Assembly (NCBI GenBank): GCA_017556785.1
Contig: JAFYMD010000106.1
Span: 1-35,217, forward strand
From: Clostridia bacterium
GTDB taxonomy: Bacteria; Bacillota; Clostridia; Oscillospirales; Acutalibacteraceae
Reading direction: 5' to 3'
Length of the DNA stretch: 35,217 nucleotides
Shown one piece after another: positions 16,088 through 35,217 of this stretch. Every line of letters starts with the position of its first letter. The first letter of the stretch is position 1. The translations under genes and the position numbers were made by a program. The notes beneath the pieces were generated by a model. The model saw only the letters and a list, made by a program, of their open reading frames with translations. It was not told the origin of the DNA and searched no databases.

Positions 16088-17572
16088 ATGACAAAAGGTT
16101 TTGACAATGACAAGTATTTGGCCATGCAATCCGAACACATTCGAGGACGCATTGACCAATTCGGCGGTAAGCTGTATTTGGAATTCGGCGGCAAATTGTT
16201 CGACGATTTTCATGCGGCTCGGGTATTGCCCGGCTTTTTACCCGACAGCAAACTGCAAATGCTGTTGCAACTGAAAGAACAAGCCGAAATTGTAATTGTA
16301 ATCAGCGCCACCGCCATTGAAAAAAACAAGGTGCGCGGTGACCTGGGAATCACCTACGACCAAGACGTACTGCGATTGATCGACGCTTTTCGCAGTGTAG
16401 GCTTGTACGTGGGTAGTGTTGTGCTTACCTGTTTTGCCTACCAACCCGCCGCTGAAGCATTTCAAACCCGATTGGAAAAATTGGGTGTACGGGTATACCG
16501 TCATTATGTCATTTCGGGGTATCCCTCCAACGTTGATCTCATCGTCAGCGATGACGGTTACGGAAAAAATCAATACATTGAAACTTCTCGTCAATTGGTG
16601 GTGGTCACCGCTCCCGGACCGGGTAGCGGCAAAATGGCAGTTTGTTTGTCTCAGCTGTATCACGACCACAAGCGTGGCGTACAAGCAGGCTATGCCAAAT
16701 TCGAAACCTTCCCTGTTTGGAATCTGCCGCTAAAGCATCCCGTGAACATGGCATACGAAGCCGCCACCGCCGATTTAAACGACGTAAATATGATCGACCC
16801 TTTCCACCTGGAAGCCTACGGCAAAACCGCCGTGAACTATAACCGCGACGTGGAAATTTTCCCTGTGGTCAGCGCCATGATGGAACGAATCTTGGGGGAA
16901 TCGCCCTATAAATCCCCCACCGACATGGGTGTCAATATGGCAGGCAACTGTATTGTAGACAACGACATGGTTTGCCAAGCCGCCAAAAGTGAGATCGTAC
17001 GGCGTTACTACGCCGGGTTGTTGGCGCAAAAAAACGGCAACGGCTCCGAAGAAACGGTGCGAAAATTGGAACTGCTTATGAAGCAAGCAGGCGTTACGGT
17101 AGCTGATCGCAAAGTCGTTGCCGCCGCCAATACCCGAGCCGAAGAAACAGGCGAGCCCGCCGCCGCCATAGAGCTGCCCGACGGTCGTATCATTACCGGC
17201 AAGACCTCACCCCTTATGGGTGCTTCTGCCGCTTTGTTGCTCAACGCATTAAAAGCTTTGGGAGGCATTGACAAAGAAATCCACCTGCTGTCCCCGGTGA
17301 TTATTCAACCCATTCAGCACCTGAAGGTCGACCACCTGGGCAACCACAACCCCCGCTTGCACACCGACGAAATTTTGTTGGCGTTGTCTATTTCCGCCGC
17401 CACCAATCCCACCGCTGAAGTGGCAATGCAACAACTCAATCTGTTAAAGGATTGCCAAGTGCACTCCTCGGTAATTTTATCCCCCGTGGATCAAAAAACC
17501 TTCAAAAACTTAGGAATACAACTGACCATGGAGCCGGTTTATCAATTCAAAAAACTGTTCCACAAAAAATAA
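16088..17572 (+). CDS. UPF0371 / DUF1846 family protein (conserved, function unknown)
   Basis: 494 aa. Blocks are FDNDKYLAMQSEHIRGRIDQFGGKLYLEFGGKLFDDFHAARVLPGF, VVTAPGPGSGKMA, GYAKFETFPVWNLPLKHPVNMAYEAATADLNDVNMIDPFHLEAYG, SPYKSPTDMGVNM and DHLGNHNPRLHTDEILLALSI. These match the highly conserved UPF0371 family known from streptococci and clostridia. Confidence 0.9.
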   Translation: MTKGFDNDKYLAMQSEHIRGRIDQFGGKLYLEFGGKLFDDFHAARVLPGFLPDSKLQMLLQLKEQAEIVIVISATAIEKNKVRGDLGITYDQDVLRLIDAFRSVGLYVGSVVLTCFAYQPAAEAFQTRLEKLGVRVYRHYVISGYPSNVDLIVSDDGYGKNQYIETSRQLVVVTAPGPGSGKMAVCLSQLYHDHKRGVQAGYAKFETFPVWNLPLKHPVNMAYEAATADLNDVNMIDPFHLEAYGKTAVNYNRDVEIFPVVSAMMERILGESPYKSPTDMGVNMAGNCIVDNDMVCQAAKSEIVRRYYAGLLAQKNGNGSEETVRKLELLMKQAGVTVADRKVVAAANTRAEETGEPAAAIELPDGRIITGKTSPLMGASAALLLNALKALGGIDKEIHLLSPVIIQPIQHLKVDHLGNHNPRLHTDEILLALSISAATNPTAEVAMQQLNLLKDCQVHSSVILSPVDQKTFKNLGIQLTMEPVYQFKKLFHKK

Positions 17573-19498: not shown

Positions 19499-21901
19499 TT
19501 ATTTAACCGCGGTGCAATGCCAAATATCTCTGGCGTAATCTTCTACCGCACGGTCGGCGGCAAACCGCCCCGACATGGCGGTATTGGTAATCGCCATGCG
19601 ATTCCATACAGCGGGTTTTTGGTACAATTCGCTTACTTTTTCTTGTGCACGGCAGTAGCTTTCAAAGTCAGCCAATACCATGTAGGGGTCACGATGAAGC
19701 AAAGAGTTGACCACGTCGGGGAAATAGTGCCCGTCAATGCCTGCGCTGATAAAGTCAATGGCTTGACGAATACGAGGATTGTTGTAGTAGTATTGGGTGG
19801 GATTGTAACGAGATTTGAGTTCTGCCGCTTCGGGGGTGCTCATACCAAAAATTACAATATTGTCGTCGCCCACAGCCTCGTGAATTTCCACGTTGGCACC
19901 GTCTTCGGTACCCAAGGTAACCGCACCGTTGAGCATGAGTTTCATGTTGCCGGTACCCGAAGCTTCGGTACCTGCCAACGAAATTTGTTCACTCACGTTG
20001 GCGGCGGGTACCAACAATTCTGCCAAGGTTACGCGGTAGTCTTCCATATACACGATTTTCAGTTTGTCTTTTACCGCGGGGTCGTTTTCAATGTGCTTAG
20101 CCAAGGTGCAAATCAATTGAATAATTTGTTTGGCAAGGAAATACCCCGGTGCGGCTTTTGCCCCGAAAATATAGGTTTTGGGGGTGAATTCGGCATTGGG
20201 ATTGTTTTTGATAAACAGATAATCGTCAATAATATGCAACACGTTAAGATGTTGCCGTTTGTATTCGTGCAACCGTTTGATTTGGATATCGAAAATGGAT
20301 TCCAAATTGCAGTCGCCACCACCGTGACGGCTGATGTATTTTGCCAAACGGGCTTTGTTGTTTTGTTTGATTTTGTGGAAGGTTTCTTGTACCGTGGCAT
20401 CGTCGGCGTATTTCATCAATTCTTCCAGCTTGTCGGCATTGTAAATATAATCGTTGCCAATCAAATCGGTAATCATAGCCGCCAGTTCGGGGTTGGCTTG
20501 GTTGAGCCAGCGACGATGAGCAATACCGTTGGTTACGTTTTTGAATTTTTGAGGGGTCAAGCGATAAAAGTCGGCAAATACGCTGTCTTTTAAGATTTCG
20601 CTGTGCAATTGAGAAACCCCGTTTACGCTGTGGCAAGCGGCTACTGCCATGTTTGCCATGCGCACCACACCGTCGGCCAAAATCGCAGTGCGTTCTACCA
20701 AGCCGGCGTCATAGGTTTGATTCCAAACCCGTTCCCGATGACGATTGTCAATTTCGGTGACGATTTGGAAAATACGGGGTAGACGTTCTTTAAACAAGTC
20801 CATGGGCCAGCATTCCAAAGCCTCACGCATAACCGTGTGGTTGGTGTAGGCAATGGTGCGGGTGACAATATCCCAAGCGTCGTCCCAAGTGTAACCGCAT
20901 TCGTCCAACAAAATACGCATCAATTCGGGAATTGCCAATACGGGGTGGGTGTCGTTGGTGTGAATGGCGGCTTTTTCGGGCAGATTGTCCAACGTACCGT
21001 AACGTTGCAGGTGGTCACGAACAATGTCTTGCACCGAAGCCGATACCAAAAAGTATTGTTGACGAAGGCGCAAAGATTTACCTTCATAGTGGTTGTCGGC
21101 AGGGTAAAGCACTTGGCTGATTACAGTAGCCATAGCATTTTGTTGCATAGCGCGCATATAGTCCCCGTCGTTAAACAGTTTCATGTCTAAACCGGGAGCT
21201 TCGGCACTCCAAAGCCGCAAAACCGACACCCCTTTGCCGTCTTGCCCTGCAACCATCAGGTCGTGGGGAATGGCTTTAATAGGTGCATAGTTTTCGTGTT
21301 CTACGTGGTGATGGTGACCGTCCCACCAATCTCGCACATAGCCGTCAAAACGAACTTCAATGGCTTGTTCGGGGTGGTCAATAAACCATACCTCGCCACC
21401 GGGAAGCCAAAAGTCGGGCAACTCGGTTTGCCAACCGTCGATGAGTTTTTGACGGAAAATACCGTATTCATAGCAAATAGAATACCCCATGGCAGGGTAA
21501 CCGTCGGTGGCAAGACCGTCTAAATAACAGGCTGCCAAACGACCTAACCCACCGTTGCCCAAACCGGCATCCGGCTCTTGATCAAAGATTTTTTCCAACT
21601 TAATGTCAAAATCGCTCAGGGCTTGTTCAAAAGAATCCATCAGCCCTAAGTTGGAAAGGTTGTTTTTCAGCGAGCGACCCATCAAGAATTCCATGCAAAG
21701 ATAATATACCTGCTTGGCATCTTGCTTGGCGGCACGCCCCATAAAATCGTTGCGACCCTTTTGCAACATGTCTTTTACAATCAAAACGATTGCTTTGTAA
21801 TAATGCTCGTTGGTGGCTTCGTGGGGGGTTACGCCGAAGTAGTGAGAAAGTTTTTGTAAAATCAATTCTCGTGCTTCGGACGAAGATAAACGGTAATCCA
21901 T
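19499..21901 (-). CDS. glgP: Glycogen/maltodextrin phosphorylase (GT35)
   Basis: 800 aa. The pyridoxal-phosphate lysine motif is EASGTGNMKLMLNGA. Other typical blocks are GLGNGGLGRLAAC, NDTHP and HEYKRQ. The RBS GGAGG precedes ATG 21901. Confidence 0.95.
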   Translation of the reverse strand: MDYRLSSSEARELILQKLSHYFGVTPHEATNEHYYKAIVLIVKDMLQKGRNDFMGRAAKQDAKQVYYLCMEFLMGRSLKNNLSNLGLMDSFEQALSDFDIKLEKIFDQEPDAGLGNGGLGRLAACYLDGLATDGYPAMGYSICYEYGIFRQKLIDGWQTELPDFWLPGGEVWFIDHPEQAIEVRFDGYVRDWWDGHHHHVEHENYAPIKAIPHDLMVAGQDGKGVSVLRLWSAEAPGLDMKLFNDGDYMRAMQQNAMATVISQVLYPADNHYEGKSLRLRQQYFLVSASVQDIVRDHLQRYGTLDNLPEKAAIHTNDTHPVLAIPELMRILLDECGYTWDDAWDIVTRTIAYTNHTVMREALECWPMDLFKERLPRIFQIVTEIDNRHRERVWNQTYDAGLVERTAILADGVVRMANMAVAACHSVNGVSQLHSEILKDSVFADFYRLTPQKFKNVTNGIAHRRWLNQANPELAAMITDLIGNDYIYNADKLEELMKYADDATVQETFHKIKQNNKARLAKYISRHGGGDCNLESIFDIQIKRLHEYKRQHLNVLHIIDDYLFIKNNPNAEFTPKTYIFGAKAAPGYFLAKQIIQLICTLAKHIENDPAVKDKLKIVYMEDYRVTLAELLVPAANVSEQISLAGTEASGTGNMKLMLNGAVTLGTEDGANVEIHEAVGDDNIVIFGMSTPEAAELKSRYNPTQYYYNNPRIRQAIDFISAGIDGHYFPDVVNSLLHRDPYMVLADFESYCRAQEKVSELYQKPAVWNRMAITNTAMSGRFAADRAVEDYARDIWHCTAVK

Positions 21902-22858: not shown

Positions 22859-23923
22859 TTATAGGGAATGAAAATTGCCTTCCACACAGGTGGCAAGGGG
22901 GTTGAGAGAATCGTCCATCACTACAAAGTCAGCGTCGTAGCCTGCGGCAAGCTTGCCCTTTGGCAGTCCCATCACGGTGGCGGGGGTGGTGCTGGCCATT
23001 TGGATGGCATCTTCTTTGGGGATCCCGAATCGGATGGCTTGCTTAACACAATACAGCAGGGTAGCGGTAGAGCCTGCGATGGTTCCGTCGGCAAGACGGG
23101 CGGTGCCCTCTTTTACAAACACCGTTTGACCACCTAAATCATACTGACCGTCGGTCAGCCCCGTGGCGCGCATGGAGTCGCTGATGAGGATCATCCGCTG
23201 TGGACCAAAGGCTTTATACAGCATCATCACCACGGCGGGATGCAGGTGGAATCCGTCGCAAATGACCTGTACGTAAGCATCCTTTGTGAGCGCCGCCCCC
23301 ACGGGACCGGGATTGCGGTGGTGGAGAGGCTTCATGGCGTTAAAGGTGTGGGTCAGTCCCACAGCGCCTGCTTCAAAAACCCGGAAAGCCAAATCGTAAT
23401 CGGCGGCGGTGTGCCCCAAAAACACGGGGATAGAGGAATCTTTGATGGCTTGCAATGCGCCATCGATTTCAGGAGCGAGAGTAATCAGCCCCAAGTGATG
23501 ATAATGGGATAAATGCTCAAAACGGGCGGCGGTAATGGCCTCTTCTGCCTGTGCCCCCTTATAGGCGGGGTTGATGAACGGTCCTTCCAAATGATACCCC
23601 AATGCTTTGGCACCGGTGGTTTCAGGCAATATAGCGGTCGCTTTTTCAATCGCTTCTTTTGCCATGGACATGGTGGTAGGATACCAAGGAGTCACCCCGT
23701 TTTGCAAATAAAAACGGCTCATTTCCTCTAAGCATTCATTCCCGTCCATCACGTCCAAGCCTATACAACCATGGGAGTGAATGTCAATCAGGCCGGGAAT
23801 AACCTCTTGTCCGTTCAGGTCAATTCCCTCTTCCGCGGTTTTTCCGAAAAAAGCAAATTTTCCGTTTTCTACCCCAAAATCAGTAACAATTCCGTTGATG
23901 CATGCGTTTTTGTAAACCGTCAT
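22859..23923 (-). CDS. nagA: N-acetylglucosamine-6-phosphate deacetylase
   Basis: 354 aa, amidohydrolase fold. NagA blocks are LIDIHSHG, GYHLEGPFI, ITLAPE, GHTAADY, THTFNAM and ISDSM. The start overlaps the nagB stop (ATGA). Confidence 0.9.
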   Translation of the reverse strand: MTVYKNACINGIVTDFGVENGKFAFFGKTAEEGIDLNGQEVIPGLIDIHSHGCIGLDVMDGNECLEEMSRFYLQNGVTPWYPTTMSMAKEAIEKATAILPETTGAKALGYHLEGPFINPAYKGAQAEEAITAARFEHLSHYHHLGLITLAPEIDGALQAIKDSSIPVFLGHTAADYDLAFRVFEAGAVGLTHTFNAMKPLHHRNPGPVGAALTKDAYVQVICDGFHLHPAVVMMLYKAFGPQRMILISDSMRATGLTDGQYDLGGQTVFVKEGTARLADGTIAGSTATLLYCVKQAIRFGIPKEDAIQMASTTPATVMGLPKGKLAAGYDADFVVMDDSLNPLATCVEGNFHSL

Positions 23924-24642
23924 CCCTCATACGCCTCTTTATCACACAAAATGGTTACGTTGGGGTGCATTTTCAGGAACGTAGCGGGACAATCGGTGGT
24001 CACCAAATCGTTTTGCAACGCTTCGATCACCGCATGTTTGTTTGCGCCCGAAATGATGCAAACGATTTGACGTGCTTTCATAATGGTGCCCATACCCATG
24101 GTAACCGCTTTGGTCGGCACGTCTTCTTTCTTTTCAAAGAAACGGGCATTGGCATCAATGGTATCGTCGGTCAAATCGGTCACGTGCGTGCCCGCCACCA
24201 ACGCGGTGTCCGGTTCGTTAAAGCCAATGTGACCGTTGCGGCCAACCCCTAACAGTTGCAGGTCAATGCCACCCTTGGCATCGATCGCAGCATCGTAAGC
24301 CGCACCTACGGTTTCCACGTCCTTGGCGGTGCCGTCCGGCACAAAGGTGTTGGCTTTGTCAATGTTAATGTTGTCGAACAAATTTTTGTTCATAAAATAG
24401 CGATAACTTTGGTCATGGGCGGGGTCCATGGGATAATATTCGTCCAAGTTAAAGGTGGTGACGTCTTTAAAATCAATCACCCCTGCTTTGTTTTGTTCTG
24501 CCAAAAATTGATACAGACCCAAGGGGGTGCTACCGGTGGCAAACCCCAAAACAGCATCGGGCTTTTCGGTAAGCAGGTCAACATACAATTTGCCTGCGGC
24601 GGCGGACATTTCTTCATAAGAGTTGCATACAATGATTTTCAT
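23920..24642 (-). CDS. nagB: Glucosamine-6-phosphate deaminase
   Basis: 240 aa. Blocks are MKIIV...GFATGSTPLGLY, FNLDEY and DLQLLGVGRNGHIGFNEP, which are canonical NagB motifs. Confidence 0.95.
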   Translation of the reverse strand: MKIIVCNSYEEMSAAAGKLYVDLLTEKPDAVLGFATGSTPLGLYQFLAEQNKAGVIDFKDVTTFNLDEYYPMDPAHDQSYRYFMNKNLFDNINIDKANTFVPDGTAKDVETVGAAYDAAIDAKGGIDLQLLGVGRNGHIGFNEPDTALVAGTHVTDLTDDTIDANARFFEKKEDVPTKAVTMGMGTIMKARQIVCIISGANKHAVIEALQNDLVTTDCPATFLKMHPNVTILCDKEAYEG

Positions 24643-24669: not shown

Positions 24670-25668
24670 TTATGGATTGAATGGCGGGCGTTTACCCACC
24701 ACAACTTGTAAAATGACGAGGGCATCGGCGGCAGTCACCCTGCCGTTTTGGTCGGTGTCGGCAGCAAGAGTTTGGGAATAAATGAGGTAGATGCGGCCCA
24801 CTACCGATTTTAATACCTCTAAAGCGTCGGCGGTATCAACCACACCGTTTTCATCCACGTCCCCCAAGGGGAAGAGAGGTTCGACGGGCACGTCGGCTTG
24901 TTTGGTTTGCGAGAATAACCAGCTCACTTGGTCGGCGGTGCGGAAGGCACGGGACCAACAACCGTGACCCAAATCGTCGTATTCGGTGTAAGAGATGTTT
25001 CCACCTGCTTCTTGAATGGCCGCTACTATGGCGCGGGTACCTGCCACCGGCACGGTGGGGTCGTCGGCGCTGTGATAGGTGCGAATGGCAACGTTGGTCA
25101 TCCGCTTTGCCTGATCAGGATCACCGCCGCCGCAAACCGGAATGGCAGCCGCAAAGGTGTTTGGGTAACGGGCAAGCAAATCCCATGTGCCGTAGCCACC
25201 CATCGAAAGCCCCGAAACGTATAGTCGGGTGGCATCAATTTTGTAGGTGTTTTGTAAGTCGGCAAGCAATTCCATTACCGCTACCAAATAGGGGGAGGGA
25301 GGAACTTTGTCGATCGCATAGGTTCCGCGGGTTGGGGAAACATTTACCCAAGGCTCCATGGATTGAGGTACAATCACAATGGTGTCGGTACGTTGATTCA
25401 AAACTGCCCGCACCAGCTCTACACCAACAGAAAGCTGATCCTCATTGTCGTTGCCGCATTCCCCAATGCCGTGCAGGTGAATGAACACCGCATAGCCGTT
25501 TTCGGGGGCATCGCCTTCGGGTTTATAAAAACGATAAGGGAGCTCGGTGTCATCCGAAGCGAAAAAGGTTTCGGCGGTCATGCCGTAAATGGTGTCATCG
25601 GCTTGGCAGGGAATCACCATTGTGCCAAGTAATGCGAAACACAAAAGAAACGAGAGGAATTTTTTCAT
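24670..25668 (-). CDS. Secreted alpha/beta-hydrolase esterase (COG4099-like) with C-terminal dockerin
   Basis: Signal peptide MKKFLSFLLCFALLGTMVIPCQA. Other features are FIHLHGIGECGNDNEDQL, the nucleophile elbow GLSMGG and a late HGCW His. The dockerin is at the C-terminus. The RBS AAGGAG precedes ATG 25668. The gene lies 27 nt upstream of nagB on the same strand. Confidence 0.8.
   Translation of the reverse strand: MKKFLSFLLCFALLGTMVIPCQADDTIYGMTAETFFASDDTELPYRFYKPEGDAPENGYAVFIHLHGIGECGNDNEDQLSVGVELVRAVLNQRTDTIVIVPQSMEPWVNVSPTRGTYAIDKVPPSPYLVAVMELLADLQNTYKIDATRLYVSGLSMGGYGTWDLLARYPNTFAAAIPVCGGGDPDQAKRMTNVAIRTYHSADDPTVPVAGTRAIVAAIQEAGGNISYTEYDDLGHGCWSRAFRTADQVSWLFSQTKQADVPVEPLFPLGDVDENGVVDTADALEVLKSVVGRIYLIYSQTLAADTDQNGRVTAADALVILQVVVGKRPPFNP
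24673..24864 (-). other. Dockerin module (C-terminal)
   Basis: GDVDENGVVDTADALEVLKSVVGRIYLIYSQTLAADTDQNGRVTAADALVILQVVVGKRPPFNP. Confidence 0.85.
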
Positions 25669-25795: not shown

Positions 25796-26554
25796 TTATT
25801 TGTTGGTGCCGACAAATTCGCTGGGGGTAATGCCTTGCAAATTTTTAAAGGCACGATTAAAACTGCGAATGGTTGAGAATCCGCTTCTGGCCGCCACTTC
25901 GGTTATGGTCAGGTCGGTGGTGCGAAGCAAAGATGCCGCCAAATCCACCCGATACTGATTAACCAACGTGCAAAAGTTCATGCCGAAATTGTCCTTAATA
26001 CAGTTGGAAAGATAGTGGTAGCTGTACCCCAAATTTTCTGCTAATTGCTCCAAACGCAAGGTGCCGTCAAGATTTTGGCTAATGTATTCAATCACCTTCT
26101 CAATCAAATGGTTGTTTTTGTGGGAAGAAGGTTGCACCTCACATTGCGCACTCGCTTGGGCACACAGGGCATACAACACGCTTTTCCAACCGAACACGTC
26201 TTTTGGTTCGGGCAGCGAAAACAATTTTGGCTCGTTGGGACGAAAAACAGGATCGACAAATTCCTTGTCGTTGATAAACTTATAAAACTCATTGACATAA
26301 ATGGGGTCAAAAATCAACATAATCGCATCCGAAAATTCGGGTGTGTGATAGCTGTGGGATTGATTTGGCAACACCAAAACCGCTTCTCCCTCACGGATTT
26401 CATAGGAAATATCGTTGACCGTACAAGAAATGTTCCCTTCACAAACGTAAAAAAACTCAAAGCTATAATGCATGTGTCGTCCAAAGGTCATGCTTTGCAC
26501 CCGCTCGGCGCGAATTAAGCGATTCAAATGAGAAGCGTTGGCTTCGTATTGCAT
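25796..26554 (-). CDS. AraC family transcriptional regulator (cupin + HTH)
   Basis: 252 aa. The cupin is HMHYSFEFFYVCEGNISCTVNDISYEIREGEAVLVLPNQSHSY. The HTH is LEQLAENLGYSYHYLSNCIKDNFGMNFCTLVNQYRVDLAASLL...IRSFNRAFKNLQGITPSEF. The RBS GGAGGTGG precedes ATG 26554. It is divergent from the GH116-like gene. Confidence 0.85.
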   Translation of the reverse strand: MQYEANASHLNRLIRAERVQSMTFGRHMHYSFEFFYVCEGNISCTVNDISYEIREGEAVLVLPNQSHSYHTPEFSDAIMLIFDPIYVNEFYKFINDKEFVDPVFRPNEPKLFSLPEPKDVFGWKSVLYALCAQASAQCEVQPSSHKNNHLIEKVIEYISQNLDGTLRLEQLAENLGYSYHYLSNCIKDNFGMNFCTLVNQYRVDLAASLLRTTDLTITEVAARSGFSTIRSFNRAFKNLQGITPSEFVGTNK

Positions 26555-26655: not shown

Positions 26656-29600
26656 ATGAAAATGAAACGAAGTATCTCTATGATTTTGGTGCTGGTTTTG
26701 CTTTTGTCGGTCGTGGGAGTGGCTCTTCCCATTACGGCAACCGCAAGCAATACGGCGGAGGAGTTGGACTATATGTATTTGAAAAACTTAAATGGCCCTT
26801 CGGGGGTCGCCTTAGGCGGTATTGGGGTTGGGTATTACGAAATCGATCCTACAGGCACGGTCACCCGAAACTGTGTGAACAATATTCACAAATCCTTTGC
26901 CGACAAGCCAAACGGCTTTTTGGTGGGGGTATGGGACGGTAAAACCGCCACCCGTTTACAACGGGACAGTGCCACCACCTACGGTATGAAAGGGTATGCC
27001 GACAGTTATTATACCGGCTTGTGGCCCTATATGAACATTGACTTCAAAAATAGCCATTCCGGCACGGCCGACATGGGTTTTTCTGCTTATTCAGGACTGA
27101 CCGCTCACAACGTAAAAGACAGTTCTTTACCCGTAGTGTATTACGACGTCGTGTTAAAAAATGACGGTAGCTCGGCCAAGACCATGTCCACCATACTGAC
27201 TTGGGGTGACTTGATTGGTCGTGGCATGCGTGATTCGGACAAAGAAACCTTGTCCGACTTAAACGGTGAATCGGAAGATTGGTACGATATGCCCACTCCC
27301 CAAACCTATGCCAAAGGGGTACAGGTTTCAAACGGCGGCACGACCTATACCGGTGTTATGCAATATGCCAAAGGACAATTGTTACCCGAACGTGCTACCT
27401 TCCAAAACTACAACAATGCCTTTATGATTTTGGCAGAAGATACTGCCGCCACCGACGTTACCATTTTAAAGAATTTTAACGTTGCTAGCAGCAACGCTTT
27501 GTCCTCTTATACTTCTTCGGGCCGATTGAATGCTTACGATGCAGGGGAAGTGGCCTTGTCCGCCCCCACCAACGGTAGCCGTACCACCACCAACGGCAGT
27601 GCGGTTGCGGTATCTGCCAGCGTACCTGCCGGACAATCGGTGACCGTAAAATTGATGGTTTCTTGGTTTGCTCCCGAAATTATCGAGGCGCAATATGCAG
27701 GTATGCACCGATTCTCTACCTGTGATTTTAATAAATATTATCATAATTCTTTTTCTACCATTGAAGCCATGACTTCCTATGCCATCGGCATTCGGGATGC
27801 CCAAAGAGCAGGCATTCGGGAGTGGCAAGATCCCATTCTCAACAGTTCCATGCCCAAGTGGTTGCAATTCAAACAAATCAACAGCGGTTACACCCTGTAT
27901 AGTTGCGGTGTACTGAACAAACGGGGCAATTTCTCTACCTTAGAGGGGGAAATGGGCGGCTACGGCGGCACCATGGACCAAAAGATGAGTTCTTACCCTG
28001 TATATGAAAAATTATTCCCTCAATTAAACTTGACCGAAAACCGTCAGTTTGCCAACGTAACAGGGTCAAACGGCGAGATTCAACACTTTGACATTCACTA
28101 CTATTACGGAATGTCTGACTATGAAAACAAAGACAATCCCACCCCTGCCGGCAGTATGATCGACAACTCCGGCACCTGGATGATGCAAATGTGGAATCAC
28201 TATCGGCAAACCGCCGACGTCACCTATTTGCAACAATATTATTCGGTGATGAAGCAGTCCATGAAATTCCTGCAAGCACGTTGTCCTGCAGGTACGCACA
28301 TTCCTTCTTACAACACCACCTATGACGATTATTCCCATCCCCAAGTGATGGTCTATTCGGGTACCGTATGGCTGCACATGCTGGATTTGGCACAACGTTG
28401 GGCAACTTTGATGGGCGAATCCGACCAAGCCGCAGCCTATGCCGCCGAATACAAGGAAGCCTTTGATGATGTGAACCTCTACTACAAGGCCTGGTCAGCC
28501 GACCTTGGCTACGATGCGTTTTATGCCTACGGCAGTAACGGGGAATTCCTTTCCTCCAACGGTCAAAGCGGCAACGTAGAAAGTGCCATTATGTTCTCGG
28601 GGGCTATGGCAGGGCAGTTCATCAGCCGTATGAACGGACAAGGGGACGTGGTTCCCTTTGACCAATTCGTTTCCCACATGAAGACCTTCCTGCAAACCTC
28701 GGTGCAACAAACCAACGATTACATGGCACCGAAGGTTTATAACATCCGTACCGAGCAAGGGTTGGATTGGCTCAGCTCCAACTGTTGGCCTTTCTACCTG
28801 GAAAGCTATGGCGGCATGGCAGCCATTCAAGCAGGGTATTTGGAAGACGGTTTGGAAATTTTGGAACATACCTCTTTGGTAGACCTGCGATTGGGCTACA
28901 CCTGGACTCGTAGTTTGTGGAGCCGCGCTTATATTACCTATATGACCGCTCCCGTTAGCTGGATGATCGGTGACGTGTTGGCAGGCGCCAGCGTAGATGC
29001 TCCCAATCATACCTTGACCTTGGGACCCTCTTGCTTGGCAAGTGAAGGGGTAGGCGTTAGTGATAACCTGACCGTTACCCTTTACTATCCCAAATATTGG
29101 GCAACCGTGAACTACAACAAAACCAGCGGTTCGTTTACTTATAAGATCATCAAAACCTTCTACGAAAACGGAGAACAACCCATTACCATCAACAAGGTGA
29201 TCGCTTCCCCCGCAGGGGTTCAAACCGCCGATGCCCAAACCATTACGCTGGATAGCACCTTTACGGTGACCGAAGGAGCGGTGTTGGATTTGTCGGCAAC
29301 CATGGACAAATTCCAAGGGGTGACCAAAGAAAAACTGTTGCAACCCGTGGCAGAATACGAGCCTCCCAAAGAGGAAGTGGTTGCTAACGGTACAGGGCTT
29401 ACCACTCGTCTGACCGCAAACGGTCAAACCACGTCCCTGCCCAAAACCGAAAGTGTCAACCTGCGATTTAACAAAGACAATCTGCCTGCCGAAAATGTAA
29501 CCGATGCTTACACCTTGGAACTGCAAGGACGCATTTTGCCCAAATACAGCCAAAAATATCAGTTGCTGTTTGAATATACGGGCAATCCGGACGATCTGAT

Positions 29601-31425
29601 TATTGAAATCGACGGCAAAGTAGTAACCGACTACGGCAGCGATATTTCGGCGGTGGAATCCCAACAATTCACCCCAACGGCAGGCTGTGCCCTGCGGGTG
29701 GTTACCATGGGGCTGGAAGGGGGCAACCTCTATTCGGTAAAGATCACCTACAAAGGGGACGTGTCCGATGCTACCGACGATGTGCTTCGCTTCCTTTGGT
29801 GGTCCACCACGCAACAAATGAGTCTGGTCATCAAAGAACGGATGTATCCCGTGATTCAGTTTGACGAAATAATCAACGGGGTAGAATATACCGACGGTAC
29901 GGTGCAAGTGGAAAATGAACACGTGGCGTATACCACCCCCGGCACCTATGCCATTTACAGCGGCATCGACTTTGGCGCAGGCGGAAAAGATTATCTCTTT
30001 AAAATCCGCGCCGCCGCCATTCGCAACGAATTGTCTCAAGGGGGCACTTTGCAGATCCGTCGGAACGACAAAAACGGCGAGTTGCTGGGTAGTCTGGAAT
30101 TTACTCCTACCTCCGATACCGGATGGGGTAATTATCAATGGTTCACCACCTCTCTGCACAGCGATCAGGGATTGCAAGGCTTCGAGGATATTTGTCTGGT
30201 GTTCCAACCTGTGGTCAGCAACGGATTTTTGATGAACTACGATCAGTTAACCTTCCTCCGTTCGGGTGTGGGTGGCAAAATTGTAGATGCCACCTCGGTT
30301 ATCGACGGGAAATCCTACACCGATGCCACCGCCGAAATTGAAGGCGACCACATGGCTTGGACCGGGCCGAACACCTATGCTTTGTATACCGGATTGGACT
30401 TTGGCGAAACCGCCCGAAACTTTACCTTTAAGATCAAGGCAGGCGCCATTAACAACGAGCACTCTCAAGGCGGCACCATGGAACTGCGGCTTGATGGGGA
30501 AAACGGTACGCTACTGGGTGTGTTGGACTTTACTCCCACCGGCGATTGGGCAAAATACGAGGAACAAACCCTGCAACTGAATCAACCCTTGTCGGGAGTA
30601 CAAAATATTTGTCTGGTATTTAAGCCGGTCAGTTCCTTCTTGTTTAACTACACCACCTTCACCTTTGAAGGGGAGCGCATTCTTTCTTCCTTTGACAAGT
30701 TTACCGACGTGTCAACTCCCATCTATCATTTAGGATTAGCGGGGGCAACCGAATCGGATAGTCATTGGACCGATTATCGCTATATTGCCCAAGAAATCGT
30801 GCCTACCAAGGCGGATTTGTACGGTGCGGCATTGGCATTAAATCTCACCGCAGGTAAAGCAACCGTGCATATGGAATTGCGGGAACAACTGAACGGAAAT
30901 GCCGTGGCAGTAACCGAGCAAACCATTGAAAGCAAGGGCAACGGCGTGGCATTTTATGATGTTCGTTTTGATGAAAAAGTCACCGTAGAGCCGCAAAAAC
31001 TGTACTATCTGGTGTATTACCTGACCGCACGGGAGGCAGGCAACGTTTGTATTGTCCACGGTGCTAATTTGGGTGCCAATAAGGCAGAATATATCGGTTA
31101 TGTGTGGAAAATGGCAGACGGTCAACCTGTTTCTTATTCCGCAGGGGACAAGAATCTGACCTTTGGCTTTGAATTGATTACCACGGCAGAAGAACCCGTG
31201 AATCCGCCTGTGGCAATCCCCTACGGCGACGTAGACGGTGACGACAGAGTCTCTGCCACCGACGCTTTGGAAGTGTTAAAATCGGTGGTAGGCAACGTGA
31301 CCTTGACCGAAGAACAAACGGTGCTTGCCGACGTGGACGGAGATGAGAAAATCTCCTCTGCCGACGCACTATATATCCTAAAAAAAGTAGTTGGTAAAAT
31401 CGACAAGTTCCCGGTGGAGGAATAA
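26656..31425 (+). CDS. Secreted 1589-aa GH116-like glycoside hydrolase with PA14-like module, two CBM6-like modules, a further beta-sandwich module and C-terminal dockerin
   Basis: Signal peptide MKMKRSISMILVLVLLLSVVGVALPITATA. The GH116 N-terminal-domain signature is ALGGIGVGYYEI ... GLWPYMNIDF ... VKDSSLPVV. A DUF608-like six-hairpin region follows: LEGEMGGYGGTMDQ, EIQHFD, NTTYDDY and VWLHMLDLAQRWATLMG. The RBS AAAGGAGGAA precedes ATG 26656. Confidence 0.75.
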   Translation: MKMKRSISMILVLVLLLSVVGVALPITATASNTAEELDYMYLKNLNGPSGVALGGIGVGYYEIDPTGTVTRNCVNNIHKSFADKPNGFLVGVWDGKTATRLQRDSATTYGMKGYADSYYTGLWPYMNIDFKNSHSGTADMGFSAYSGLTAHNVKDSSLPVVYYDVVLKNDGSSAKTMSTILTWGDLIGRGMRDSDKETLSDLNGESEDWYDMPTPQTYAKGVQVSNGGTTYTGVMQYAKGQLLPERATFQNYNNAFMILAEDTAATDVTILKNFNVASSNALSSYTSSGRLNAYDAGEVALSAPTNGSRTTTNGSAVAVSASVPAGQSVTVKLMVSWFAPEIIEAQYAGMHRFSTCDFNKYYHNSFSTIEAMTSYAIGIRDAQRAGIREWQDPILNSSMPKWLQFKQINSGYTLYSCGVLNKRGNFSTLEGEMGGYGGTMDQKMSSYPVYEKLFPQLNLTENRQFANVTGSNGEIQHFDIHYYYGMSDYENKDNPTPAGSMIDNSGTWMMQMWNHYRQTADVTYLQQYYSVMKQSMKFLQARCPAGTHIPSYNTTYDDYSHPQVMVYSGTVWLHMLDLAQRWATLMGESDQAAAYAAEYKEAFDDVNLYYKAWSADLGYDAFYAYGSNGEFLSSNGQSGNVESAIMFSGAMAGQFISRMNGQGDVVPFDQFVSHMKTFLQTSVQQTNDYMAPKVYNIRTEQGLDWLSSNCWPFYLESYGGMAAIQAGYLEDGLEILEHTSLVDLRLGYTWTRSLWSRAYITYMTAPVSWMIGDVLAGASVDAPNHTLTLGPSCLASEGVGVSDNLTVTLYYPKYWATVNYNKTSGSFTYKIIKTFYENGEQPITINKVIASPAGVQTADAQTITLDSTFTVTEGAVLDLSATMDKFQGVTKEKLLQPVAEYEPPKEEVVANGTGLTTRLTANGQTTSLPKTESVNLRFNKDNLPAENVTDAYTLELQGRILPKYSQKYQLLFEYTGNPDDLIIEIDGKVVTDYGSDISAVESQQFTPTAGCALRVVTMGLEGGNLYSVKITYKGDVSDATDDVLRFLWWSTTQQMSLVIKERMYPVIQFDEIINGVEYTDGTVQVENEHVAYTTPGTYAIYSGIDFGAGGKDYLFKIRAAAIRNELSQGGTLQIRRNDKNGELLGSLEFTPTSDTGWGNYQWFTTSLHSDQGLQGFEDICLVFQPVVSNGFLMNYDQLTFLRSGVGGKIVDATSVIDGKSYTDATAEIEGDHMAWTGPNTYALYTGLDFGETARNFTFKIKAGAINNEHSQGGTMELRLDGENGTLLGVLDFTPTGDWAKYEEQTLQLNQPLSGVQNICLVFKPVSSFLFNYTTFTFEGERILSSFDKFTDVSTPIYHLGLAGATESDSHWTDYRYIAQEIVPTKADLYGAALALNLTAGKATVHMELREQLNGNAVAVTEQTIESKGNGVAFYDVRFDEKVTVEPQKLYYLVYYLTAREAGNVCIVHGANLGANKAEYIGYVWKMADGQPVSYSAGDKNLTFGFELITTAEEPVNPPVAIPYGDVDGDDRVSATDALEVLKSVVGNVTLTEEQTVLADVDGDEKISSADALYILKKVVGKIDKFPVEE
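29390..29830 (+). other. PA14-like module
   Basis: YTLELQGRILPKYSQKYQLLFEYTGNPDDLIIEIDGKVVTDYG...LEGGNLYSVKITYKGD...LRFLWWS. This fits the PA14 pattern (DD..i.iDG, Y.v.i.Y, l.W). Confidence 0.55.
29869..30675 (+). repeat. Two tandem CBM6/CBM35-like modules (29869-30265 and 30277-30675)
   Basis: Copy 1 reads INGVEYTDGTVQVENEHVAYTTPGTYAIYSGIDFGAGGKDYLFKIRAAAIRNELSQGGTLQIRRNDKNGELLGSLEFTPTSDTGWGNYQWFTTSL...ICLVFQP. Copy 2 reads IDGKSYTDATAEIEGDHMAWTGPNTYALYTGLDFGETARNFTFKIKAGAINNEHSQGGTMELRLDGENGTLLGVLDFTPTGDWAKYEEQTLQL...ICLVFKP. This layout is typical of CBM6-type sugar-binding modules. Confidence 0.65.
31222..31413 (+). other. Dockerin module (C-terminal)
   Basis: YGDVDGDDRVSATDALEVLKSVVGNVTLTEEQTVLADVDGDEKISSADALYILKKVVGKIDKFP. 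Confidence 0.85.
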
Positions 31426-31439: not shown

Positions 31440-31478
31440 AAACTCACCCTCTTTCCCGAGGGTGAGTTTTTCGTTTTC
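31440..31478 (+). terminator. Rho-independent terminator after the GH116-like gene
   Basis: ACTCACCCTC (31442-31451) pairs with GAGGGTGAGT (31458-31467) around a 6-nt loop. It is followed by TTTTTCGTTTT. Confidence 0.8.
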
Positions 31479-31494
31479 CTTGGATGATTTTCCC

Positions 31495-31523
31495 TTGCAC
31501 ATAAGATTGCTTTGGTGTATAAT
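31495..31523 (+). promoter_or_regulatory. Putative sigma-A promoter of the last gene
   Basis: TTGCAC (31495-31500), a 17-nt spacer, then a consensus TATAAT (31518-31523). The RBS GAGGAGGA lies 6 nt before ATG 31567. Confidence 0.6.
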
Positions 31524-31566
31524 CAAAATAGATATATATACCTATTATCTTTGAGGAGGATGTGCT

Positions 31567-34500
31567 ATGAAACGCTTACTCACGTTTGTGATGGTTTTGT
31601 GCTTGCTTTGCTCATTGGCAGTGCCTTTTGACGCATCAGCCGCCATTCCGCTTGACCAGTCTATTGACGGACTGAACAATACCTCTTTGGTCGTTTTGCC
31701 TGCCGGGAACACCGGTACCAATTATCCCAAAGGCAAAATCGTTACCGACAACTATACCGAAGGTGACGGCAGTTTATATTCCAACTGGCCTGCGCCCGCC
31801 AGCGGAACTCTTGCAGGAACCCAAAACGGCATCAACATTTCCCTTGTTGGTGTAGGCGGCAGTGCGGGGCTGAATATTGCCGCCGCTACCTACGTTTCTT
31901 TTGACCTGTATCTGCATGGGGTAAGCTTTACCGCCGGTAAAGATGCCCTGATTCGTTTTGGCTCGCAAGCCTCGTGGAACTCCACCGACTTGGGCTCGGT
32001 TTATTTTACCGACCAAGCCAAAAATATGAAAGAGGGTTGGAACCACTTTACCATTCCTCTTCCTGCTTCTTGGAACCACACCTCGGTAAAAAATATTTGG
32101 ATTGCTTTTGACAACGGCTGTACCGCTGTTACCCTTACCGCGAATGATGCTTATGTATTGTTAGACGACCTGCGGTTGTTAAACAACGAGGGGAAAGCCA
32201 TTAACGACGTGCGTAACCAAGCCAAGCCGGTGATTGCCGCCATTGCCAAGGCATATAAAACCTCTGCCAAGGCCGATATTACCGCCGCTCGCAATGCTTA
32301 TAACGCTTTGTCTGCCGCCGCTAAGGCTTACGTAACCAATTTGGATAAGTTGGATGCCGCCTCGGTTGCTTATGACAAGCAATTCCGCTCGCTGGATACC
32401 CTTGTGGGTATAAATGGGGGCAACGGCACCCAAAACCGCACCATTGAACCGACCAACTATATGGAAGGCAAAGGTGCCGGTAAATGGGAATATACCGCCG
32501 CTTCCAATGGGTTGTTCTGGTATGTATATTGTGATAATCACACCACCGACACGGTGGGTATGGATATTTCCGGTGCGGAATATATCGTCTTCGACTTCTT
32601 TGTCAGCAATGCTTCTGCTTGGACGTTGGCAGGGGACACCCGCATCAACTTCCGTGACTCCACCGACGGGTGGAATTCCAAGGCGGGACAGGTAACTGCC
32701 ACCAATATGAATAACACCTTTAAAGCCATGAAAACCGGTTGGAACCATGTGGCTTTGCCCATTGACCGCTCTGCCGCCACGGTAAATAACGTGTGGGGAT
32801 TTCGTATGTATTTTGCCAGCGGTACGGCACCTGCCGGTTTTTATACCATGATTGACGACATTCGGTTTGTAAGCGCATCCTACGTAAATAGTCAACACTA
32901 TGCCGATACCATTGCCGCAAAAAAGGTTGCCGCCCAAATCGGTTCCTTGCCCAACAGCGCTTCGGCTGCTCAAATTCATTCGGTGCAAAATGCGTATTTT
33001 GCCTTAACCGATGCGCAACGTCCCTTGGTTGCCAATATTGCTCATCTGAACAAACTGGTGAACAACCTTTCGGCAACTTCGGTGAATATTCAATATCGTC
33101 ACCTGAACAACGCCGAACGCACCTCTCAAGAAGCCGCTACTACCACCGAAACCACCACCATGCGGGTAGAAGGTACGGGGGCCGCTAAATTCGTGCACGC
33201 AGTTGACCGCACCAACGGTTTGTATTGGTATGTATATTGCGAATCTTCTGCCGCCTCTACCGGCACCAATATTGCAGGGGCAACCCATATTACCTTTGAC
33301 TTTTACGTCAGCGATCCCTCAAAATGGAGCATTGGCACGGCAGATATGCGTCTGTCGGTACGGAACGTTGCTTCCACCACGTGGGACAACTCTTGTACCC
33401 AGGTTTCTGCCGCCAATATGAAAACCGCATTCTCGAACGTAAAACAAGGGTGGAACCATATTGTTATGCCCTTGGAATCTTTGTTGACCAACGATGCTTT
33501 CGCATTCCGTATGTATATGACCGGCGGTAGTGCCAAGCAAGGCTTTTACACCATCATTGACGACGTTCGGTTTGTGAACCGCACCTATCTTGCATCGGCA
33601 GACTATGCTGACCGTATTGCCGCCAAAAAGGTTTCGGGTTTGATTTCTCAACTCACCTCCCAAAGCGGTTCCACCCAAATTTCTGCCGCCCGCACCGCTT
33701 ACAATGCCTTGACTACCACCCAACAAGGCTACGTTTGCAACTACGATTGGCTTACCGCTTACGAAGCAGGTAACGCCCCTGCAGGAAGCGCTCAACAAAC
33801 CTTCCAAACCATTCCTGCCGAACATTTAGGAAATCTGGCAGGCTATGCCAAGGGCGAATTCTCTTTGGCGATTTTAAGTGACTTGCACTATGCCGTAAAC
33901 TGGAATAGCCAACAAAAAGATATTTACTTCAACTCCATGAAATATATTTTGGACCGTGCTGATTCCGAAAACACCCTCATGACCATTCAACTGGGGGATA
34001 TGACCAGCGGTAACCGCTATGCCGAATGGCTTACCGTGCGCGAAGGTTTCCAAATGCTGGTAGACGGCGGCATGCCCTATGCCACCACCATTGGTAACCA
34101 CGATATCGGTAGCGGTGCCAATGCAGCCTATAATGCCTTCTTGCCTTACAGCGAGCAGGTTGCCGAAAACCCCTATTTGGCTGGCGCCAAAGAAGAAGGC
34201 AAAACCGACAACTTGTACTACACCTTTAAGGTGAACGGTGTAAAATACATGGTGCTTGTGCTGGCTTGCTATCCCAAAGATGCGGTGCTCAGTTGGGCAG
34301 ACAGTGTGGTAAAAGCCCACTCGGATTACAACGTAATTTTGGTTACCCACTCTTACCTGCAAATGAAAAACGGTACTTTGGGTTACACCGAAGAAGTGGA
34401 AGCCCTCGCCGCCGGTTTTAAGGGCATTAACGTGTGGAATAACCTGATTAAAGGTAATCCCAACATCTTTATGACCTTCAGCGCCCACAACTCCTATCCC

Positions 34501-35217
34501 GAACCGGGTAAAAACGGGGTTGGCTTGTTGACCTCTAAAAACGATGCCGGTCGCAACGTATACCAATTCTTGGTACCCGACCCTCAAAACTATGAAAACA
34601 CCTACGGCGGTTTGGGTAGTTTATTCATGCTTCGTTTCTCCAACGCAGGCAAAACCGTAACCGGTGAATATATCGCCACCCGCTATAACAAAGACTTTAT
34701 TGGTTACGGCACCAACAATTTCAGCATTACCCTTGACCCCATTCCCGACTACACCGCCATGGCCAAAGCGGTAGATGACAAAATCGCCGCCTTGCCTTCC
34801 AATATTACCCTTTCTAATGAAGCAGCGGTTACCGCGACGCGAAGCGCTTACAATGCGTTGGTAAACGAAGCCAAAGCCAAAGTAACCAAATTGAGTGTGC
34901 TCACCGCCGCCGAAACCAAGATTGCCGATCTGAAAGCGGCAAAAACGGTACAAGACAAGATTGCCGCTTTGCCCTCTACCATTGCGCTTACCAATGAATC
35001 GGCGGTTACTGCGGCACGGAGTGCATATAACGCCTTGACCTCCACCCAAAAATCTTACGTAACCAACCTAAGTAAGTTGACTGCCGCCGAAACCACCATT
35101 ACCAACCTAAAAGCGGCAAAAACGGTGCAAGACAAGATTGCCGCCTTGCCTTCTACCATCACTCTAAACAATGAATCGGCAGTTACTGCGGCACGGAGTG
35201 CTTACAATGCCCTTACC
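31567..35217 (+). CDS. Secreted protein of at least 1217 aa (3' end outside the window): three CBM-like beta-sandwich modules, a metallophosphoesterase domain and tandem 59-aa helical repeats
   Basis: It is not in the ORF track because it has no stop codon. I translated the frame by hand from ATG 31567 to 35217 and found 1217 codons with no stop. The signal peptide is MKRLLTFVMVLCLLCSLAVPFDASA. The long minus-strand ORFs listed here have low-complexity G/V/R-rich translations and are shadow ORFs. Confidence 0.85.
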   Translation, partial: MKRLLTFVMVLCLLCSLAVPFDASAAIPLDQSIDGLNNTSLVVLPAGNTGTNYPKGKIVTDNYTEGDGSLYSNWPAPASGTLAGTQNGINISLVGVGGSAGLNIAAATYVSFDLYLHGVSFTAGKDALIRFGSQASWNSTDLGSVYFTDQAKNMKEGWNHFTIPLPASWNHTSVKNIWIAFDNGCTAVTLTANDAYVLLDDLRLLNNEGKAINDVRNQAKPVIAAIAKAYKTSAKADITAARNAYNALSAAAKAYVTNLDKLDAASVAYDKQFRSLDTLVGINGGNGTQNRTIEPTNYMEGKGAGKWEYTAASNGLFWYVYCDNHTTDTVGMDISGAEYIVFDFFVSNASAWTLAGDTRINFRDSTDGWNSKAGQVTATNMNNTFKAMKTGWNHVALPIDRSAATVNNVWGFRMYFASGTAPAGFYTMIDDIRFVSASYVNSQHYADTIAAKKVAAQIGSLPNSASAAQIHSVQNAYFALTDAQRPLVANIAHLNKLVNNLSATSVNIQYRHLNNAERTSQEAATTTETTTMRVEGTGAAKFVHAVDRTNGLYWYVYCESSAASTGTNIAGATHITFDFYVSDPSKWSIGTADMRLSVRNVASTTWDNSCTQVSAANMKTAFSNVKQGWNHIVMPLESLLTNDAFAFRMYMTGGSAKQGFYTIIDDVRFVNRTYLASADYADRIAAKKVSGLISQLTSQSGSTQISAARTAYNALTTTQQGYVCNYDWLTAYEAGNAPAGSAQQTFQTIPAEHLGNLAGYAKGEFSLAILSDLHYAVNWNSQQKDIYFNSMKYILDRADSENTLMTIQLGDMTSGNRYAEWLTVREGFQMLVDGGMPYATTIGNHDIGSGANAAYNAFLPYSEQVAENPYLAGAKEEGKTDNLYYTFKVNGVKYMVLVLACYPKDAVLSWADSVVKAHSDYNVILVTHSYLQMKNGTLGYTEEVEALAAGFKGINVWNNLIKGNPNIFMTFSAHNSYPEPGKNGVGLLTSKNDAGRNVYQFLVPDPQNYENTYGGLGSLFMLRFSNAGKTVTGEYIATRYNKDFIGYGTNNFSITLDPIPDYTAMAKAVDDKIAALPSNITLSNEAAVTATRSAYNALVNEAKAKVTKLSVLTAAETKIADLKAAKTVQDKIAALPSTIALTNESAVTAARSAYNALTSTQKSYVTNLSKLTAAETTITNLKAAKTVQDKIAALPSTITLNNESAVTAARSAYNALT
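31642..33760 (+). repeat. Three ~705-bp (about 235-aa) diverged tandem units, each a CBM-like module plus a helical AARxAYNAL segment
   Basis: The GWNH codons recur at 32038, 32740 and 33451, giving offsets of 702 and 711 bp. Motifs shared by units 2 and 3 are G(L)(F/Y)WYVYC, (I)(V/T)FDF(F/Y)VS, GWNH(V/I), FRMY and GFYT(M/I)IDD(I/V)RFV. Unit 1 is more diverged (YVSFDLYL, EGWNHFTIPL, YVLLDDLRLL). Confidence 0.65.
33856..34740 (+). other. Metallophosphoesterase (calcineurin-like) domain
   Basis: Motifs are AILSDLHY (DxH), IQLGDMTSG (GD), IGNHDIG (GNHD), LVTHSYL (H) and FSAHN (degenerate GHxH). Confidence 0.7.
34780..35217 (+). repeat. In-frame tandem repeat with a 177-bp (59-aa) period, at least 2.5 copies, truncated by the window edge
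   Basis: The KIAALPS codons start at 34780, 34957 and 35134, exactly 177 bp apart. The repeat unit is KIAALPS(N/T)I(T/A)L(S/T/N)NE(A/S)AVTA(T/A)RSAYNAL...(K/S)(V/Y)T(K/N)LS(V/K)LTAAET(K/T)I(A/T)(D/N)LKAAKTVQD. Copies 2 and 3 are also clearly similar at the DNA level. Confidence 0.85.

Follow-up and report, generated by a model that had tools for sequence, protein, structure and literature searches.

A secreted Acutalibacteraceae protein combining three CBM-like modules with a metallophosphoesterase domain and a predicted dockerin anchor

We analyzed a 35,217-nucleotide stretch of DNA from a Clostridia bacterium of the Acutalibacteraceae (contig JAFYMD010000106.1 of assembly GCA_017556785.1), referred to here as the window. 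A gene that starts at position 31567 and runs to the window end encodes a secreted protein with three modules resembling carbohydrate-binding modules (CBMs), each followed by a helical tail, and then a metallophosphoesterase (MPE) domain and helical repeats. We refer to the modules as M1 to M3 and to the tails as H1 to H3. The reading that we favor, to which we give a somewhat better than even chance, is that this is a phosphoesterase from a gut Clostridium of Acutalibacteraceae type, secreted, tethered to a scaffoldin and targeted to a glycan. Glycan binding and a phosphoglycan substrate are the putative parts of this reading.

A preliminary description of this DNA had proposed that a list of open reading frames (ORFs) missed a real secreted gene here, open on the plus strand for 1217 codons from ATG 31567. 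Translation of the window agrees with this. The frame contains no stop codon up to the window end at 35217, and a run of this length would occur by chance in random sequence with a probability of about 4e-26. Over 31774-35049 the list holds only minus-strand ORFs; the gene is absent because ORFs running past the window end go unlisted. The same gene with the same start is present in an independent metagenome-assembled genome (MAG) contig (L011; GCA_017548025.1) at 97.5% identity. A frameshift or stop had been named as the observation that would speak against the gene, and this second assembly shows neither over the 1097 shared codons. The two copies differ by 163 synonymous and 33 nonsynonymous changes, corresponding to a ratio of nonsynonymous to synonymous rates (dN/dS) of 0.05. 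By region, the ratio is 0.09, 0.06 and 0.013 in M1, M2 and M3, 0.05-0.08 in the helical tails and 0.024 in the MPE domain. The gene is real and under constraint in every region.

The near-consensus promoter and ribosome-binding site described earlier are both present by direct reading (TTGCAC-17-TATAAT and GAGGAGGA). A promoter scan gave 10 of 12 matches, in a neighboring register. An intrinsic terminator lies between the promoter and the gene upstream and sets our gene apart as its own transcription unit. The terminator, the -35 and -10 hexamers and the ribosome-binding site are all kept in L011. The N-terminus reads MKRLLTFVMVLCLLCSLAVPFDASA followed by A. Inspection of its basic n-region, hydrophobic core and A-x-A site is consistent with the proposed signal peptide. 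The N-terminus of protein P0001 is identical to it. A lipoprotein signal was rejected, as the sequence contains no lipobox.

Segment-against-segment BLAST confirmed three copies of the CBM-like module. M2 and M3 are 42% identical (E 1e-53), and M1 is 26-32% identical to them (E 1e-15 to 1e-18). The motifs reported earlier as shared by all three copies are complete in M2 and M3. M1, however, lacks WYVYC, FDF[FY]VS, FRMY and GFYTxIDDxRFV, and has only GWNH, FDxY and DDxR in common with the other two. M3 is 53-82% identical across all orthologues. M1 is 68-76% identical to its positional orthologue in P0002-P0005 and absent from the more distant P0007 and P0009. The modules are threefold in number, as had been described, but M1 is of another subtype; in place of three equivalent copies, the ‘triplication’ is an old array that has been shuffled. 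An alignment of 32 module-plus-tail copies (A1) revealed invariant or nearly invariant residues at E37, G38, F79, D80, W106, G128, W129, N130, P135, D167, D168 and R170 in segment numbering. The modules have isoelectric points (pI) of 4.7-6.4, and each contains 4-6 Trp and 7-9 Tyr residues. This acidic-to-neutral, aromatic-rich composition would suit CBM function and glycan binding, whereas the acidic pI speaks against polyanion binding, such as electrostatic attachment of the modules to DNA or teichoic acid.

The AlphaFold2 model calculated from the module alignment has a predicted local distance difference test score (pLDDT) of 94.6 and a predicted template modeling score (pTM) of 0.91. It contains a β-sandwich (segment residues 1-172) joined to a three-helix bundle. 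In a Foldseek search of the PDB with this model, CBM30 came first among the CBMs (2c24, 1wzx and 1wmx; E 2e-5 to 1e-4, template modeling (TM) score on the target 0.53-0.61, 14-18% identity). CBM28, CBM27, CBM16, CBM22 and CBM29 were also matched, and all CBM matches are at 9-18% identity. Because these families score similarly to CBM30, the predicted fold match is at the level of the type-B CBM superfamily and is not specific to CBM30. The sequence profile of the module reaches only CBM28 chains in the PDB, marginally (3acf, E 0.0053; 1uww, E 0.048).

CBM30 (Pfam PF21582) is detected in one of 17 aligned module copies, with an E value of 0.011. Pfam CBM30 matches in the distant relatives P0025, P0052, P0040, P0018 and P0011 fall within the envelopes of our module hidden Markov model (HMM), and most are weak and partial. 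The Pfam-CBM30-positive segment of P0025 did not reach a CBM30 chain in a sequence search of the PDB. With this bridge failing, filing the module as CBM30 was rejected. The preliminary description had called the module unrecognised and had matched it to no named CBM family. The lack of a named family holds in Pfam and in NCBIfam, where a scan of the protein gave no meaningful family. The word ‘unrecognised’ holds in that the window copies stay below every CBM family threshold, but the module is not wholly an orphan, given its type-B CBM fold with CBM30 as best match. The module is probably a deep, unclassified branch of the CBM30/28-type β-sandwich superfamily, CBM-like by predicted fold and remote homology and in no named family by the tests run.

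The metallophosphoesterase domain proposed earlier is the only Pfam family recognised in the protein (Metallophos PF00149, residues 767-936), with a score of 26.4 bits where the cut-off is 21.5. Among 19 relatives, no variation occurs in GD, GNHD, T-H, the motif I Asp or the first motif V His, and H774 is replaced by Gln in a distant branch. Six metal-ligand positions (D772, H774, D811, N844, H928 and H974) are invariant in the orthologue set. The domain is among the most conserved regions (close orthologues are 81-87% identical to it). That its motifs are intact and its constraint is strong argues that the enzyme is active. Sequence and fold searches of the PDB with the domain gave no reading of its substrate class, and a PDB sequence search with the whole protein was uninformative.

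BLAST and HMM comparisons indicated that the helical segment of about 55 residues after each module belongs to the same family as the 59-residue repeats at the C-terminus. The 59-residue period that had been proposed is evident from KIAALPS, which recurs at residues 1072, 1131 and 1190. An AARxAYNAL helix had been described after each module. Helical segments do follow all three, but the M2 tail reads VQNAYFAL. AARxAYNAL itself is found at residues 240, 707, 1149 and 1208, and residue 1090 marks the variant ATRSAYNAL. Tandem Repeats Finder detected no DNA-level repeat in the gene; the repeats have diverged at the nucleotide level. In a comparison with known three-helix modules (FIVAR, GA and others) the 59-residue repeat matched no Pfam family at E<0.1, and among PDB sequences nothing scored below E 0.16. 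Outside the window, P0010, P0015 and similar dockerin proteins contain the repeat in arrays of 10-14 units, without the β-sandwich module. In these Clostridia it is apparently a common spacer repeat that has not been described before.

A protein search returned orthologues at 42-75% identity. All six full-length orthologues (P0002-P0005, P0007 and P0009; 1230-1720 residues) contain Metallophos and, at the C-terminus, a type I dockerin that has two calcium-binding segments. They extend 63-217 residues past the point that matches the window end. The preliminary description had asked whether a dockerin, an SLH domain or an LPXTG motif anchors the protein. The orthologues point to a C-terminal type I dockerin as the expected anchor, and nothing suggests SLH or LPXTG. 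Four other genes in the window carry dockerins, and no cohesin is found within it. M3, H3 and the MPE domain form an invariant core, whose identity stays at 53-87% out to the most distant orthologues. An additional N-terminal module is present in P0002-P0005. Sources of the relatives are a goat-rectum Clostridia MAG and an Acutalibacteraceae MAG.

Searches for the rest of the gene gave little. An exact 46-mer from the window end matched no metagenome contig, a protein-level metagenome scan for the continuation found no relative, and a genome scan for the gene returned only orthologues at 72-74%. The protein encoded by the upstream neighbor has no database record. A conserved gene neighborhood was rejected, as gene neighbors differ at all eight orthologue loci examined (L001, L002 and L005-L010). 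Because of these variable neighbors and its own terminator-promoter pair, the gene is a stand-alone unit, and its context gives no functional clue.

The module family is widespread. An exhaustive HMMER search with the module profile over 1.84 billion representative proteins found 548 representatives at E≤1e-3; the number falls to 267 at ≤1e-10 and to 41 at ≤1e-30. These proteins are mostly large and contain 2-14 module copies. A word-indexed profile search with the module alignment gave zero matches, missing even the known orthologues, and the same kind of search with the MPE domain alone gave a single fragment. We take the empty result to be an artefact of the prefilter and not absence of the family, as the exhaustive search recovered the orthologues.

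We surveyed partner domains in 166 collected proteins. In one group, the modules occur with helical tails and dockerins, and the partner is the MPE subfamily in 20 of the 166. The same group includes proteins with EEP phosphatases (P0014, P0041 and P0054, the last also with Listeria-Bacteroides repeats), cohesin-dockerin scaffoldin-like proteins and proteins with CBM9-like domains. In the other group, tandem modules without helices are joined to GH43, GH5, GDSL and SASA esterases, pectate-lyase-like domains, GxGYxYP, purple-acid-type Metallophos, or cohesin and dockerin. The EEP domain of P0014 is related to PDB entry 4c1r (E 2e-16). This entry is BT3783, a phosphatase that depends on Mg and has been tested with phosphorylated sugars and a phosphorylated high-mannose N-glycan (PMC4978465). 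Judging from sequence, phosphoesterases of two unrelated folds occur alongside the module family, and for one of these the closest characterised relative has glycan phosphate as its substrate. We infer that the modules may mediate multivalent glycan recognition, which is supported by their fold, their acidic and aromatic-rich composition, the carbohydrate-active enzyme partners and the BT3783-like phosphatase partner.

In the favored reading, the protein would be exported by Sec and displayed on a cellulosome-like cohesin-dockerin complex. Its stalk of helical repeats would end in a type I dockerin, as in the orthologues, with the repeats acting as spacers between the catalytic head and the scaffoldin. 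The modules would hold the enzyme on a polymeric glycan. M3, H3 and the MPE domain would be the targeting-plus-catalysis core, and the outer modules could add avidity or a second specificity. The dimetal MPE domain would hydrolyse phosphate mono- or diester groups on or linking the glycan, which could, for instance, be of phosphomannan type or a cell-wall or host glycan decorated with phosphodiesters. Removal of the phosphate would lift a block to neighboring glycosidases and free phosphate. A wider proposal, possible although we regard it as doubtful, is that the module founds a new carbohydrate-binding family and the MPE domain a new glycan-phosphate esterase subfamily, and that with their EEP siblings they form a ‘dephosphorylation arm’ of cellulosome-like complexes. 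Such an arm would strip phosphate mono- or diesters from phosphomannan, teichoic-acid-like polymers or phosphorylated host glycans so that the complexed glycosidases can act.

A number of observations weigh against the glycan-targeted phosphoesterase. In the MPE domain, motif V is without the second His of GHxH (SAH974NS here), which is absent almost throughout the 19 relatives. The best PDB sequence matches of the domain, a dimetal phosphatase (2nxf, E 0.002) and Mre11 (E 0.01-0.02), cover the N-terminal motifs only. The model of the domain is mediocre (pLDDT 65, pTM 0.73), and in Foldseek its top match is Mre11 (E 1e-5), followed by purple acid phosphatase (E 1e-4), at TM scores of 0.42-0.48. 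None of the window modules matches a Pfam family, M2 not even at E≤10, and none reaches the threshold of any CBM family. The link to CBM30 is remote and is drawn partly from summed weak matches. The invariant E37, G38, D80, D167 and D168 of the module may serve as a structural metal site instead of contacting a ligand. The dockerin is not in the window itself, which stops inside the helical repeats, and the genomic context lends no support. The enrichment of phosphoesterase partners is biased, the profile having been built from MPE-linked modules. Glycan binding and any substrate are what we infer from sequence.

The nearest solved relatives of the MPE domain, by sequence and by fold, include the nucleases Mre11 and SbcD as well as Lmo2642, which we take to be a cyclic-nucleotide phosphodiesterase. 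They would fit a nuclease or nucleotide phosphodiesterase displayed at the surface, which obtains phosphate and nucleosides by scavenging extracellular DNA, RNA or nucleotides, with modules that merely hold the plant or particle surfaces where lysed-cell material gathers. The two additional dockerin-bearing phosphoesterases in the window could then be part of a general phosphate-scavenging set. We consider this unlikely. The likeness to Mre11 and SbcD covers only generic N-terminal metal motifs (E 0.01-0.08, TM<0.5), and no nuclease capping or DNA-binding domain was detected in the window protein. The acidic modules are poorly suited to DNA binding, and the phosphatase in the sibling architecture has a closest characterised relative that acts on glycan phosphate.

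Still less likely, in our judgment, is that the modules do not bind carbohydrate but are structural or protein-interaction ‘X-modules’ of the cellulosome-like system, and that the MPE domain serves phosphate acquisition as a generic phosphomonoesterase, akin to purple acid phosphatase, its second-best fold neighbor. The same modules are present in cohesin-dockerin proteins without a recognisable catalytic domain (P0056, P0058 and P0040), although scaffoldins commonly carry CBMs too. The invariant module residues look structural; however, fold and remote homology point to ligand-binding type-B CBMs, the modules are fused with GH43, GH5, esterases and lyase-like domains, and purifying selection on them is as strong as on the enzyme. 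The missing second His of GHxH, the D-x-Q form of motif I in distant relatives and the modest Pfam score (26.4 bits) could also indicate a catalytically dead MPE scaffold in a protein that is purely an adhesin or binding component. This pseudo-enzyme is very improbable. PPP-family phosphatases likewise work with six ligands, and the six metal-ligand positions are invariant in the orthologue set, in a domain whose identity in close orthologues and low dN/dS place it among the most conserved regions of the protein.

The features of the gene and its upstream region are collected in Table 1.

Table 1. Features of the MPE gene and its upstream region in the window
Feature	Coordinates	Strand	Residues	Details
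Intrinsic terminator of the upstream GH116-like/CBM6/dockerin gene	31440..31479	+		Hairpin 31440-31469, 12-bp stem, 6-nt loop, T-run; kept in L011
Sigma-70-type promoter TTGCAC-17-TATAAT	31495..31523	+		TTGCAC 31495-31500, TATAAT 31518-31523; both hexamers identical in L011
Ribosome-binding site GAGGAGGA	31553..31560	+		6 nt upstream of ATG; identical in L011
Sec-type signal peptide	31567..31644	+	1-26	Predicted cleavage after ASA; sequence inspection
Module M1, divergent subtype of the CBM-like β-sandwich	31645..32184	+	27-206	Module HMM 168.6 bits; dN/dS 0.09
Helical tail H1, with ITAARNAYNAL	32185..32355	+	207-263	Helical-repeat HMM E 2e-17; dN/dS 0.05
Module M2, CBM-like β-sandwich	32356..32886	+	264-440	AlphaFold2 model and Foldseek; dN/dS 0.06
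Helical tail H2, three-helix bundle modeled with M2	32887..33075	+	441-503	HMM E 5e-18; helices at segment residues 180-196, 204-215, 228-239
Module M3, most constrained module	33076..33606	+	504-680	42% identity to M2; dN/dS 0.013
Helical tail H3, with ISAARTAYNAL	33607..33777	+	681-737	HMM E 3e-23; kept in all orthologues
Linker	33778..33861	+	738-765	Low pLDDT in MPE model; conservation below neighbors
MPE catalytic domain	33862..34716	+	766-1050	PF00149; dN/dS 0.024
MPE metal motifs	33877-33891; 33991-34005; 34093-34104; 34345-34356; 34480-34494	+	D772-x-H774; G810-D811; G843-N-H-D846; T927-H928; A973-H974	
C-terminal 59-residue helical repeats, 2.6 units, cut by window end	34717..35217	+	1051-1217	HMM E 2e-23, 6e-27, 6e-15

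Counting the gene described above, whose dockerin is assigned by orthology, the window contains three dockerin-linked phosphoesterase genes. A second dockerin-bearing MPE is encoded at 1808-3163 (+), with 451 residues, an N-terminal type I dockerin and Metallophos. Paralogy between the two MPE genes was rejected, as only the GNHD motif aligns. The third is a TTG-called ORF at 12072-15083 (-) of 1003 residues, with signal-peptide-like MKRLIATVLCLVMFF 21 codons in. Its product consists of an N-terminal region, a helical segment, a type I dockerin (residues 328-382), a domain of about 380 residues and a C-terminal EEP phosphoesterase. The helical segment resembles the 59-residue repeat by eye and is below the HMM threshold. 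The EEP domain has no PDB sequence match at E 0.01.

An uncharacterised family of about 375 residues is present in three copies, at 9724-10851 (-), at 10921-12057 (-) and at residues ~400-790 of the dockerin-EEP protein. The first two are adjacent, leaderless ORFs with 59% identity between them, and both match the central domain of the dockerin-EEP protein at 46-50% identity. The family matched no Pfam family, apart from a faint GH125 at E 0.03 on one ORF, and no PDB sequence. It may be a new glycan-active family. Adjoining it at 5168-9653 (-) are DUF4838 (5168-6790), a phosphoglucomutase/phosphomannomutase (6931-8613) and a GH130 family protein (8595-9653). In view of GH130 phosphorylases, this set suggests a mannoside or N-glycan salvage cluster.

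The upstream neighbor of the MPE gene, at 26656-31425 (+), encodes 1589 residues with GH116-like N-terminal and catalytic regions, PA14, two CBM6 stretches and a C-terminal type I dockerin. In L011 the gene upstream of the MPE gene is annotated as LRR_5 plus dockerin, and the neighbor may differ between strains. A 332-residue esterase at 24670-25668 (-), with matches to Peptidase_S9, Esterase and Abhydrolase_2, has a C-terminal dockerin. Additional genes encode AraC-type regulators at 15094-15984 (+) and 25796-26554 (-), DUF1846 at 16088-17572 (+), a GH13 neopullulanase-like enzyme at 17630-19495 (-), a glycogen/maltodextrin phosphorylase at 19499-21901 (-), and a nagA-like amidohydrolase together with a nagB-like glucosamine-6-phosphate isomerase at 22859-24642 (-).

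In the current understanding, cellulosome-like complexes bring together glycoside hydrolases, esterases, lyases and peptidases, and a dockerin-linked phosphoesterase would add phosphate removal to them. In a literature search, no paper turned up in which a dockerin is combined with a metallophosphoesterase or ‘calcineurin-like phosphoesterase’. Six papers in this search name both a metallophosphoesterase and a carbohydrate-binding module, but only incidentally, judging by their titles. The module family of about 175 residues, with its 548 representatives and confident model, is a candidate new CBM family, and the MPE subfamily offers clear mutational targets. If the substrate is a nucleic acid or a small molecule, the protein would be a secreted phosphatase of an ordinary kind, unusual in its anchoring.

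Modular enzymes of the dockerin type that carry CBM-like modules are well known. Neither the module family nor the MPE subfamily has been characterised, and the same applies to the two in combination. Among the known systems, CBM30 is the N-terminal module of Clostridium thermocellum Cel9D-Cel44A. It has a β-sandwich in common with the window modules and is likewise found in dockerin-bearing enzymes. Unlike CBM30, the window modules each carry an obligate three-helix bundle after them and are attached to phosphoesterases. CBM28 is a fold neighbor as well as the sole solved family reached by the module profile, aligned via the FDFY and D-x-RF strands, but at marginal scores under any family threshold. 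The Mre11/SbcD nucleases and the purple acid phosphatase PPD1 (4hd0, 4o43, 4lty and 3zk4) are the nearest solved structures to the MPE domain, with N-terminal metal motifs in common and, for the window domain, a predicted MPE fold. The similarity is limited to sequence E values of only 0.002-0.08 and TM<0.5; the window protein, in contrast, is secreted and modular, with a motif V that is without the second His.

The mannose-6-phosphatase BT3783 of Bacteroides thetaiotaomicron (4c1r; PMC4978465) is a functional analogue of the proposed role. It acts on phosphorylated mannan and N-glycan, and by taking off the phosphate it opens the way for glycosidases. The EEP fold of BT3783 is found in the sibling architecture in which the module is followed by EEP, helical repeats and dockerin (P0014 and P0041). 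The catalytic domain of the window protein, however, is an MPE of unrelated fold, and the protein has no EEP domain (PF03372); the 4c1r chain has 290 residues. PGAP5 and Cdc1 are Mn-dependent phosphodiesterases that cleave ethanolamine-phosphate from mannose in glycosylphosphatidylinositol glycans (PMC4214784). Together with Ted1 they provide a precedent for the MPE class acting on glycan phosphodiesters, likened here by description only. Unlike the window protein, they are eukaryotic membrane proteins of the endoplasmic reticulum and Golgi. PGAP5, Cdc1 and Ted1 presumably share the D-x-Q and GNHDIG-like motif variants with the window MPE subfamily.

The Ruminococcus bromii amylosome is one dockerin-borne enzyme complex, and the ‘mucinolysome’ of Limousia, also a member of the Acutalibacteraceae, is another. 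The study of the latter mentions no phosphoesterase or phosphatase (PMC12997984). Like the window protein, with its predicted dockerin, the enzymes of such complexes combine a signal peptide, binding modules, a catalytic domain and a C-terminal type I dockerin. The window protein differs in having a phosphoesterase as its catalytic domain in place of a glycoside hydrolase or peptidase.

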